DNA of 64,000 nt from Escherichia coli. Its GTDB lineage: Bacteria; Pseudomonadota; Gammaproteobacteria; Enterobacterales; Enterobacteriaceae. The DNA lies in the NCBI RefSeq assembly GCF_024223415.1, contig NZ_CP100500.1. One strand, written 5' to 3'. Under the pieces are notes generated by a model, which saw only the letters and a list, made by a program, of their open reading frames with translations, was not told the origin of the DNA and searched no databases. Below are positions 3,984-39,231 of this stretch, in pieces. How positions within the stretch are numbered: position 1 is the stretch's first letter; each line of letters starts with the position of its first letter. The position numbers and the translations under genes were made by a program.

Positions 3984-4084
3984 CAGTTGAATAATCAACC
4001 GGATTAATTCTCCGGTAAATAACGACAAAAACAAAATTGGCCATTTCGGTCAGGGCCAACTATTGCCTGAAAAAGGGTAACGAT

Positions 4085-13426: not shown

Positions 13427-13699
13427 TGAAAATCTGACTGGATGTAACGGTTGATAAGAAAATTATAACGGTGGTGAAAATTCGCAGGAAAAGTAACTTG
13501 TTGCGAATATTCCTGCCGTTATTTGATATAAATAACCAGCATAACAACGAGTTAATATTAGGATTTTAGTCAAAGTTTCCTAGGATTTTTCTTGTTTCCA
13601 GAGCGGATTCGTAAGACAATTAGCGCCTTAGTTTTACGGGTTAGCGTGAGTGAGCCATGCTCGTTACATCGCAGGTGTGTATTCAGTGTTCTGGTAGCT

Positions 13700-13722
13700 G
13701 TAAAGCCAGGGGCGGTAGCGTA
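13700..13722 (+). promoter_or_regulatory. JUMPstart/ops element (GGCGGTAGCGT) for RfaH-dependent antitermination
   Basis: Exact ops core GGCGGTAGCGT in the about 1 kb AT-rich galF to O-antigen intergenic region; coordinates approximate. Confidence 0.6.
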
Positions 13723-35202: not shown

Positions 35203-36102
35203 TCACTCCATCATTTTCTCAATCGGCAGCACCAGGATTGAACTGGCACCCAGCGCTTTCAGTTTTTCCATCGTTTCCCAGAACAGGGTTTCGCTACTCA
35301 CCATGTGCATCGCTACGCGCTGTTGATCACCCGCCAGCGGTAGAATAGTTGGGCGTTCGGCACCTGGCAGCAGGGCGATGACTTCATCCAGGCGTTCGGT
35401 CGGTGCGTGCATCATGATGTATTTTGATTCGCGCGCCTGGATCACACCCTGAATACGGGTCAGCAGTTTGTCGATCAGCTGCTGTTTGGATTCTTCCATT
35501 TCGCCATCGCGTTGTATCAGGCAAGCTTTCGAGCGGTAGATAACTTCGACTTCGCGCAGGCCGTTTGCTTCCAGCGTGGCACCGGTGGAAACCAGATCGC
35601 AAATCGCATCCGCCAGTCCGGCGCGCGGGGCGACTTCAACAGAACCGTTCAGTAAGCAGGATTTAAAAGAGATGCCTTTCTGGTCGAGATAACGCTTGAG
35701 CAGGTGAGGATAAGAGGTGGCGATACGTTTACCGTTTAAGGAGAGCGGGCCGTCCCAGGCTTCATCAACCGGCGTTGCCAGCGAAAGACGGCAGCCGCCG
35801 AAATCCAGACGACGCAGGGTAAAGTAGCGTGGATCTTCACCCTGGGCGCGGCGGTTAAGCAGTTCTTCTTCCAGCACGTTTTCGCCGATAATCCCAAGGT
35901 CTACCACGCCGTCCATTACCAGACCGGGAATGTCGTCGTCACGCACGCGCAGAATATCAATCGGCATGTTTTCTGCCATCGCGATCAGGCGCTGGGTGTG
36001 AAGATTGATTTTAATGCCACAGCGCGCCAGTAATTCGCGTGAGTCATCACTTAAACGGCCGGATTTCTGCATAGCTATGCGTAAACGAGTGTTGTCTGTC
36101 AT
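35203..36102 (-). CDS. hisG: ATP phosphoribosyltransferase
   Basis: ORF 35203..36141; start at [15 protein letters not shown] gives 299 aa. Confidence 0.95.
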
Positions 36103-36149
36103 TTTCTTATTCCTCTTTAAACCTGTCTGAACCGTTATCAATCGCGCAA

Positions 36150-36190
36150 TAAAAAAGCCCCCGGAAGGTGATCTTCCGGGGGCTTTCTCA
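36150..36190 (-). terminator. his attenuator terminator hairpin
   Basis: On the minus strand, GCCCCCGGAAG-loop-CTTCCGGGGGC followed by a T-run, between hisL and hisG; coordinates approximate. Confidence 0.7.
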
Positions 36191-36247
36191 TGCGTTCATG
36201 CACCACTGGAAGATCTGAATGTCTTCCAGCACACATCGCCTGAAAGA

Positions 36248-36298
36248 CTAGTCAGGATGATGGTGATGATGGTGGTGTTTAAATTGAACGCGTGTCAT
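36248..36298 (-). CDS. hisL: his operon leader peptide
   Basis: Minus-strand mini-ORF translating to MTRVQFKHHHHHHHPD* (seven consecutive His codons), too short for the ORF track; coordinates approximate. Confidence 0.85.
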   Translation of the reverse strand: MTRVQFKHHHHHHHPD

Positions 36299-36544
36299 AA
36301 AAGTCTCTGTGAATGTTTATTCAACTGATGTCTTTTAACCTAAACCACTTTCACGTTAGAAAGCAAGGGCTTTTTTATATATTTTATGGCAATGGATTTG
36401 TTTAATGAATGAGCGGGGAAAGGAGGGGGCTAAGAGGACTGTCCTCTAACCTGACGGCACCAAAAATAGCGAAGCCTGGATTTTCGTCTCACTGACAATA
36501 TCTTGATCTACAAACTAATTAATAAATAGTTAATTAACGCCCAT

Positions 36545-36575
36545 CATTGTACAATGAGCTGTACATAAGAGGAGA
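36545..36575 (+). promoter_or_regulatory. yefM-yoeB operator/promoter region
   Basis: Two GTACA-core palindromic half-sites (TTGTACAATGAGCTGTACAT) immediately upstream of the yefM RBS and ATG. Confidence 0.45.
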
Positions 36576-36580
36576 TTGAT

Positions 36581-36832
36581 ATGCGTACAATTAGCTACAG
36601 CGAAGCGCGTCAGAATTTGTCGGCAACAATGATGAAAGCCGTTGAAGATCATGCCCCGATCCTTATTACTCGTCAGAATGGAGAGGCTTGTGTTCTGATG
36701 TCACTCGAAGAATACAACTCGCTGGAAGAGACGGCTTATCTACTGCGCTCCCCCGCTAACGCCCGGAGATTGATGGACTCAATCGATAGCCTGAAATCTG
36801 GCAAAGGAACGGAAAAGGACATCATTGAGTGA
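36581..36832 (+). CDS. yefM: antitoxin YefM
   Basis: 83-aa ORF recognised as YefM (Phd-like); 4-nt overlap with yoeB. Confidence 0.9.
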
Positions 36833-37083
36833 AACTAATCTGGTCTGAGGAATCATGGGACGATTATCTGTACTGGCAGGAAACAGATAAGCGAATTGTT
36901 AAAAAGATCAATGAACTTATCAAAGATACCCGCAGAACGCCATTTGAAGGTAAGGGGAAGCCAGAACCCCTGAAACATAATTTGTCAGGTTTCTGGTCCC
37001 GACGCATTACAGAGGAGCACCGTCTGGTATACGCGGTTACCGACGATTCACTGCTCATTGCAGCATGTCGTTATCATTATTGA
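36829..37083 (+). CDS. yoeB: toxin YoeB (ribosome-dependent mRNA interferase)
   Basis: 84-aa ORF recognised as YoeB. Confidence 0.9.
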
Positions 37084-37165
37084 ACAGATTCATTCATAGA
37101 ATGAATTGTCAGTTTTGATACGCTAGCGTAGCCTTATAGATCTAAGGTGTATCAGGAGATAACGG

Positions 37166-37990
37166 ATGAAAAAGGTCGCAATTGTCGGGTTAGGGTGGTT
37201 AGGCATGCCGCTGGCGATGTCACTTTCAGCGCGAGGCTGGCAAGTCACCGGGAGTAAAACCACACAAGATGGTGTCGAAGCGGCCCGAATGAGTGGCATT
37301 GATAGCTATCTGCTTCGCATGGAGCCTGAGTTAGTTTGCGATTCTGACGATCTGGATGCCCTGATGGATGCCGACGCGCTGGTCATTACGCTTCCGGCAC
37401 GTCGTAGCGGCCCCGGCGATGAGTTCTATTTACAAGCGGTACAAGAGTTAGTGGATAGCGCGCTGGCCCATCGTATTCCCCGCATTATTTTTACCAGCTC
37501 AACGTCTGTCTATGGCGACGCGCAAGGCACGGTGAAAGAAACCACCCCGCGTAATCCGGTAACCAACAGTGGACGAGTATTAGAAGAACTCGAAGACTGG
37601 CTGCACAATTTACCCGGTACTTCGGTCGATATTCTGCGTCTTGCGGGGCTGGTCGGACCGGGACGTCATCCCGGACGCTTCTTTGCCGGAAAAACCGCGC
37701 CTGATGGTGAACATGGTGTTAATTTAGTCCATTTAGAAGATGTTATTGGCGCTATCACTCTGTTGTTACAGGCACCTAAAGGCGGACACATCTATAATAT
37801 ATGTGCGCCAGCTCACCCTGCGCGTAATGTTTTCTATCCGCAGATGGCCCGTTTACTGGGGCTGGAACCTCCGCAGTTCAGAAATAGTCTGGACAGCGGC
37901 AAAGGTAAGATTATTGATGGCAGTCGGATTTGTAATGAACTGGGATTTGAATACCAGTATCCCGATCCGCTGGTAATGCCGCTGGAGTAA
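37166..37990 (+). CDS. yeeZ: NAD(P)-binding epimerase/dehydratase-family protein
   Basis: 274-aa ORF with Rossmann motif (VAIVGLGWLG); conserved position next to yefM-yoeB. Confidence 0.8.
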   Translation: MKKVAIVGLGWLGMPLAMSLSARGWQVTGSKTTQDGVEAARMSGIDSYLLRMEPELVCDSDDLDALMDADALVITLPARRSGPGDEFYLQAVQELVDSALAHRIPRIIFTSSTSVYGDAQGTVKETTPRNPVTNSGRVLEELEDWLHNLPGTSVDILRLAGLVGPGRHPGRFFAGKTAPDGEHGVNLVHLEDVIGAITLLLQAPKGGHIYNICAPAHPARNVFYPQMARLLGLEPPQFRNSLDSGKGKIIDGSRICNELGFEYQYPDPLVMPLE

Positions 37991-38965: not shown

Positions 38966-39231
38966 AGAAAAATTATTATGGCAAGCCTCTCATTCTCTTG
39001 TCATTTCCCCCCCATTTAGGCACAATGCGCCGCTGTCAAAAAATGACTAAAAACCGACGTTTCATCAGCGTCGGTTATTTTTTGCTTCAAACCAATCATT
39101 CATACCAAGAGGCCGGGCTTCGTACCGGATAGATATTTACTAAAAATCGACAGTTGTTGTCGCTGAGGAATCCAAAAAAATGGGGCAATTTTTTGCTTAC
39201 GCGACGGTTATCACCGTAAAGGAGAATGACC

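Follow-up and report, generated by a model that had tools for sequence, protein, structure and literature searches.

The promoter-operator upstream of yefM

The site directly upstream of yefM in the window, the whole 64-kb stretch of Escherichia coli DNA that was analysed, is almost certainly the promoter-operator of the chromosomal yefM-yoeB type II toxin-antitoxin operon, which is predicted to repress itself through a long (L) and a short (S) palindrome. A repeat search detected a perfect 14-bp palindrome, TCATTGTACAATGA, at 36544-36557, with 7 + 7 arms (TCATTGT/ACAATGA). TGTACA cores lie at 36548-36553 and 36560-36565, within the segment 36540-36583 (cccaTCATTGTACAATGAgcTGTACAtaagAGGAGattgatATG), and the distance between them is 12 bp whether it is taken from start to start or from centre to centre. 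The coordinates of the individual elements are collected in Table 1.

In K-12, the L and S repeats have been footprinted by YefM and by YefM-YoeB, and the primary YefM footprint takes in the palindrome that is called L (PMC1802561). When the window was aligned to the MG1655 operator, the L repeat, the S core and their 12-bp spacing were identical, as the initial annotation had anticipated when it matched the architecture of the site to that reported for YefM-YoeB autoregulation. The same three features agreed with the sequences spelled out in the text of PMC1802561 and with its operator oligonucleotide 1, which contains the full K-12 sequence. The -35 and -10 hexamers, the start-site G, the RBS and the ATG were also identical to MG1655 base by base. 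Between 36500 and 36580, five single bases differed from the K-12 operator of Kedzierska, Lian & Hayes 2007 (PMC1802561), at 36501, 36541, 36558, 36566 and 36580, and all five fell outside the -35, -10, L, S core and RBS. Two details of the initial annotation needed correction. The half-site pairs that it had described with a GTACA core are present as two paired cores, but the published core is TGTACA. Its range of 36545-36575 covered most of the operator but omitted the first base of L, 36544, and the bases at 36566-36575 are 5′-UTR and RBS rather than operator.

Promoter positions were taken from published K-12 data, where the ATG is at +21 and a gap of 6 bp separates the RBS from the ATG (PMC1802561). 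With the ATG of the window at 36581, this literature and the identity to K-12 place +1 at 36561. The K-12 promoter, pyy, consists of a -35 box TaGttA, a 17-bp spacer, a -10 box TAcAAT and a start G; its L repeat spans the entire -10 box and its S repeat surrounds the start site (PMC7730913). All of these elements, including the 17-bp spacer, recur in the window, where L lies over the -10 box and S around the start site both by position and by K-12 identity. With just 3 of 6 bases of TAGTTA matching TTGACA, the yefM promoter was missed by a generic sigma-70 scan of 36100-37200, which fits the published weak -35 box. The pat promoter of axe-txe on the Enterococcus faecium plasmid pRUM likewise has a TGTACA pair 12 bp apart and the -10 box TACAAT, but there the spacer from -35 to -10 contains L, S overlaps the -10 box only partly and repression is leaky (PMC7730913). 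Unlike pat, the window has the pyy arrangement.

Table 1. Features of the yefM-yoeB locus (positions in the window)
Feature	Position	Strand	Basis
-35 hexamer TAGTTA of the yefM-yoeB promoter (pyy)	36527-36532	+	identical to K-12; PMC7730913
L (long) palindrome TCATTGTACAATGA, predicted primary YefM site by analogy with K-12	36544-36557		perfect 7 + 7; L repeat of PMC1802561
-10 hexamer TACAAT, within L	36550-36555	+	PMC7730913; sequence
6-bp ATGAGC separating the TGTACA cores (K-12: ATGAAC)	36554-36559		sequence and K-12 alignment
S (short) core TGTACA, predicted secondary cooperative site by analogy with K-12; holds start G 36561	36560-36565		PMC1802561, PMC7730913
RBS AGGAG, 6 nt 5′ of ATG	36570-36574	+	sequence; PMC1802561
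yefM, antitoxin/repressor, 83 aa, R10 and R31 present	36581-36832	+	100% identical to K-12 b2017
yoeB, toxin/co-repressor, 84 aa, GTG start	36829-37083	+	100% identical to K-12 b4539

The toxin-antitoxin module and its neighbourhood

The proposal that the operator serves an intact toxin-antitoxin module was borne out by the coding sequences, as YefM and YoeB are both full length, identical to their K-12 counterparts and above the curated cut-offs of their families. YefM scored 96.8 bits against PF02604 (cut-off 29.8) and 186.6 against the NCBIfam equivalog NF008499 (cut-off 121), and YoeB scored 146.3 bits against PF06769 (cut-off 27) and 132.8 against the NCBIfam equivalog TIGR02116 (cut-off 51.8). 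The start of yoeB overlaps the yefM stop by 4 bp (GTGA). YoeB contains E46, R65, H83 and Y84, residues that are said to have been assigned a catalytic role by Kamada & Hanaoka in 2005. In the solved YefM2-YoeB complex (PDB 2a6q), YefM matches chain A, and YoeB matches chain E at full length (84 residues). The two YefM arginines listed in Table 1, R10 and R31, have been reported to be essential for binding of operator DNA (PMC4803016).

To the left of yefM, on the minus strand, are hisG, which ends at 36141, and the His leader (36149-36272), and to the right of yoeB are homologues of yeeZ and yeeY. This order (hisL/hisG, yefM-yoeB, yeeZ/yeeY) is shared with K-12. In addition to the His leader on the minus strand, Rfam matches above the gathering score were obtained on the plus strand for JUMPstart (13684-13722), algC RNA (4031-4080) and the sRNA STnc240 (39011-39085). 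The JUMPstart match probably lies at the start of the O-antigen gene cluster, and the window probably extends over the colanic acid, O-antigen, gnd/ugd/wzz, his and yefM-yoeB regions.

Conservation within Escherichia

The 866-bp region at 36300-37165 matched 5,416 of 5,426 complete E. coli genomes, with 100% identity to strain Combat11I9 and 99% identity to K-12 derivatives. The 91-bp promoter region (36510-36600) of the window is a minority allele: 109 of 3,730 matching genomes were at least 99% identical to it, and most of the 3,730 were 93-97% identical, K-12 being at 95.6%. When six E. coli alleles of this region (93-100% identity) and Escherichia whittamii were compared, L and the S core were invariant, and the variation fell just outside them, at 36539-36543, 36558, 36566, 36578 and 36580. 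Two of the differences from K-12 adjoin the S core, namely G in place of A at -3 (36558) and T in place of A at +6 (36566). The ATGAGC stretch between the cores varied in sequence and was fixed in length, in the E. coli alleles as well as in the distant homologues described below; diversity of the between-core sequence among species with conserved spacing has been reported previously (PMC1802561). Of 100,044 species-representative genomes, a single one contained the exact L-NN-S pattern; this was E. whittamii, which has the same gene order. Outside Escherichia, the exact operator thus seems to be absent.

Operators of distant plasmid-borne homologues

Fifteen plasmid-borne yefM homologues with 40-84% protein identity, from Gamma-, Alpha- and Betaproteobacteria and Actinomycetota, were examined for paired GTAC cores. 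At 10 of the 15 loci, the 120 nt preceding the start codon contained GTAC-N8-GTAC, versus a shuffle mean of 0.022 loci, and no other GTAC spacing from 5 to 30 was found at more than 3 loci. These ten homologues, with 40-54% protein identity, came from Gamma- and Alphaproteobacteria and Actinomycetota. The same pattern was absent from all 73 coding or downstream blocks of 120 nt. These results independently reproduce the conservation of the 12-bp motif reported in PMC1802561. The distant operators, including those of Acinetobacter, Rhizobium, Dietzia and Methylococcus, share the paired cores with the window. They differ in the palindromic arms that flank the cores, in the bases between them and in how far they lie from the ATG, and CGTACA is often the second core.

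At three loci (an A. baumannii plasmid, Spartinivicinus and Piscirickettsia), the upstream 120 nt contained two 12-bp-spaced GTAC pairs in tandem; in the A. baumannii plasmid, TGTACA starts at -81, -69, -51 and -39. The sequence arrangement suggests a doubled operator. On the Pantoea agglomerans C410P1 plasmid, both operator cores upstream of a yefM homologue with 75% identity were mutated (TCATTGTAAAATGA and CTGTAATA), and its gene table, which is incomplete, lists no yoeB. A possible explanation is that this homologue is an orphan antitoxin whose operator is decaying.

A possible third site in the window, CGTACAAT at 36584-36591, was also considered. It lies within yefM codons 2-4, at a distance of 24 bp from S, resembles the S core with one mismatch and belongs to an 11/12 direct repeat of 36549-36560. 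Because none of the 15 plasmid homologues had a GTAC among its first 45 coding nucleotides, CGTACAAT was treated as probably a chance occurrence.

Alternative readings of the site

Taken singly, the elements of the operator are what might be expected if the palindromes were chance matches in AT-rich intergenic DNA with no regulatory role. The TGTACA hexamer was not enriched in the window (8 found, 11.5 expected), and perfect 14-bp palindromes were not rare (8 found, with a shuffle mean of 3.9, or about four per window at random). In contrast, the exact pair TGTACA-N6-TGTACA was found at one place in the 64 kb, 100 dinucleotide-preserving shuffles yielded no copy of it, and among the 136 GTAC sites of the window, GTAC-N8-GTAC was formed at this site alone. 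The non-random feature is the paired arrangement and not either element by itself; the significance is limited to the exact pair, as a search allowing up to 2 mismatches found 2 pairs versus 1.58 expected. Chance also accounts poorly for elements that are identical to the footprinted K-12 operator, for an L and S core that stay constant across E. coli alleles while flanking bases vary, and for a 12-bp pairing that reappears 5′ of two-thirds of the distant homologues (10/15). Based on the shuffles and the conservation, chance was excluded as an explanation, and we regard its probability as negligible.

It is very unlikely that the site mainly serves another regulator, for example in the control of the divergent his operon. 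The site does lie between the divergent hisL and yefM, and the yefM transcript was first noticed as one divergent from the his promoter (PMC1802561). However, hisL begins at 36298 on the minus strand, ~245 bp from the site, and it is the -10 box and start site of yefM, not the his promoter, that the palindromes overlap. The paired motif also accompanies plasmid-borne yefM homologues without his genes in their vicinity. A transcribed palindrome is in principle able to fold, which would allow the palindromes to work as an RNA hairpin in the yefM 5′-UTR instead of a DNA operator, but because +1 (36561, from the K-12 mapping) lies inside S and downstream of the whole of L, neither palindrome would be fully transcribed, and we consider this reading to be extremely improbable. 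A remaining alternative accepts an intact operator but supposes that the G at 36558 and the T at 36566 measurably alter repression or start-site use relative to K-12. Both bases directly adjoin the S core and belong to an allele whose exact 91-bp form is in the minority, whereas both proteins, the core and the spacing are those of K-12 and the G at 36558 is found in another E. coli allele too. Since species differ in the between-core sequence but keep the spacing, a large effect of the -3 and +6 differences is unlikely, and any measurable effect seems improbable. If such an effect were real, basal expression of the YoeB toxin would differ between E. coli lineages.

Decayed remnants of the module in other E. 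coli genomes

Approximately 1,200 of the 5,426 complete E. coli genomes matched the flanks of the module alone. The site is not empty in such genomes 'lacking' the module, as remnants were seen in both HH97 and O157:H7 Gim1-1. In HH97 (positions 1430-1880 of its locus), the yefM part of the remnant was identical at 155 of 211 positions with 52 gap columns, and the yoeB part at 73 of 114 with 139 gap columns. Its promoter-operator was identical at 41 of 43 positions with L and S intact, and its flanks were 100% (right) and 31/33 (left) identical. The remnant in O157:H7 Gim1-1 (398-700 of its locus) was shorter and more decayed and contained no operator. The much greater divergence of the remnant relative to the flanks may point to an old pseudogene haplotype. 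The O157:H7 Gim1-1 remnant also contains GCCGGATGCGGCGTGAATGCCTTATCTGGTCTAC, at about 520-556 of its locus. In our view, this sequence bears a close resemblance to the consensus of the E. coli REP element, and it would then represent either a REP insertion or a coincidence.

Discussion

The preferred reading of the site, a self-repressing yefM-yoeB promoter-operator, follows the model established in K-12, where YefM binds L first and then S, YefM-YoeB binds more avidly and the operon is autorepressed (PMC1802561, PMC7730913). By analogy, a YefM dimer would bind the 14-bp L palindrome with the -10 box inside it, and a second dimer would then occupy the S core, 12 bp away, with the start site inside it. 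YoeB bound to YefM would make the occupation of both sites stronger and cooperative. With the -10 box under L and +1 under S, repressor bound at these sites should keep RNA polymerase off the promoter, and this steric exclusion would result in autorepression of the operon. The binding, the order of L and S, the cooperativity and the exclusion of polymerase are carried over from the literature on K-12 elements that are identical to those in the window.

The operator and its architecture are already known, and the finding has little importance beyond correct annotation, although the locus can be used as a positive control for sequence-based operator recognition. As a modest by-product, E. coli genomes that appear to lack the module were found to hold decayed remnants of it, and HH97 keeps an intact promoter-operator. 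As judged from its sequence, the strain studied here carries an intact yefM-yoeB module, which should be normally self-repressed as in K-12.
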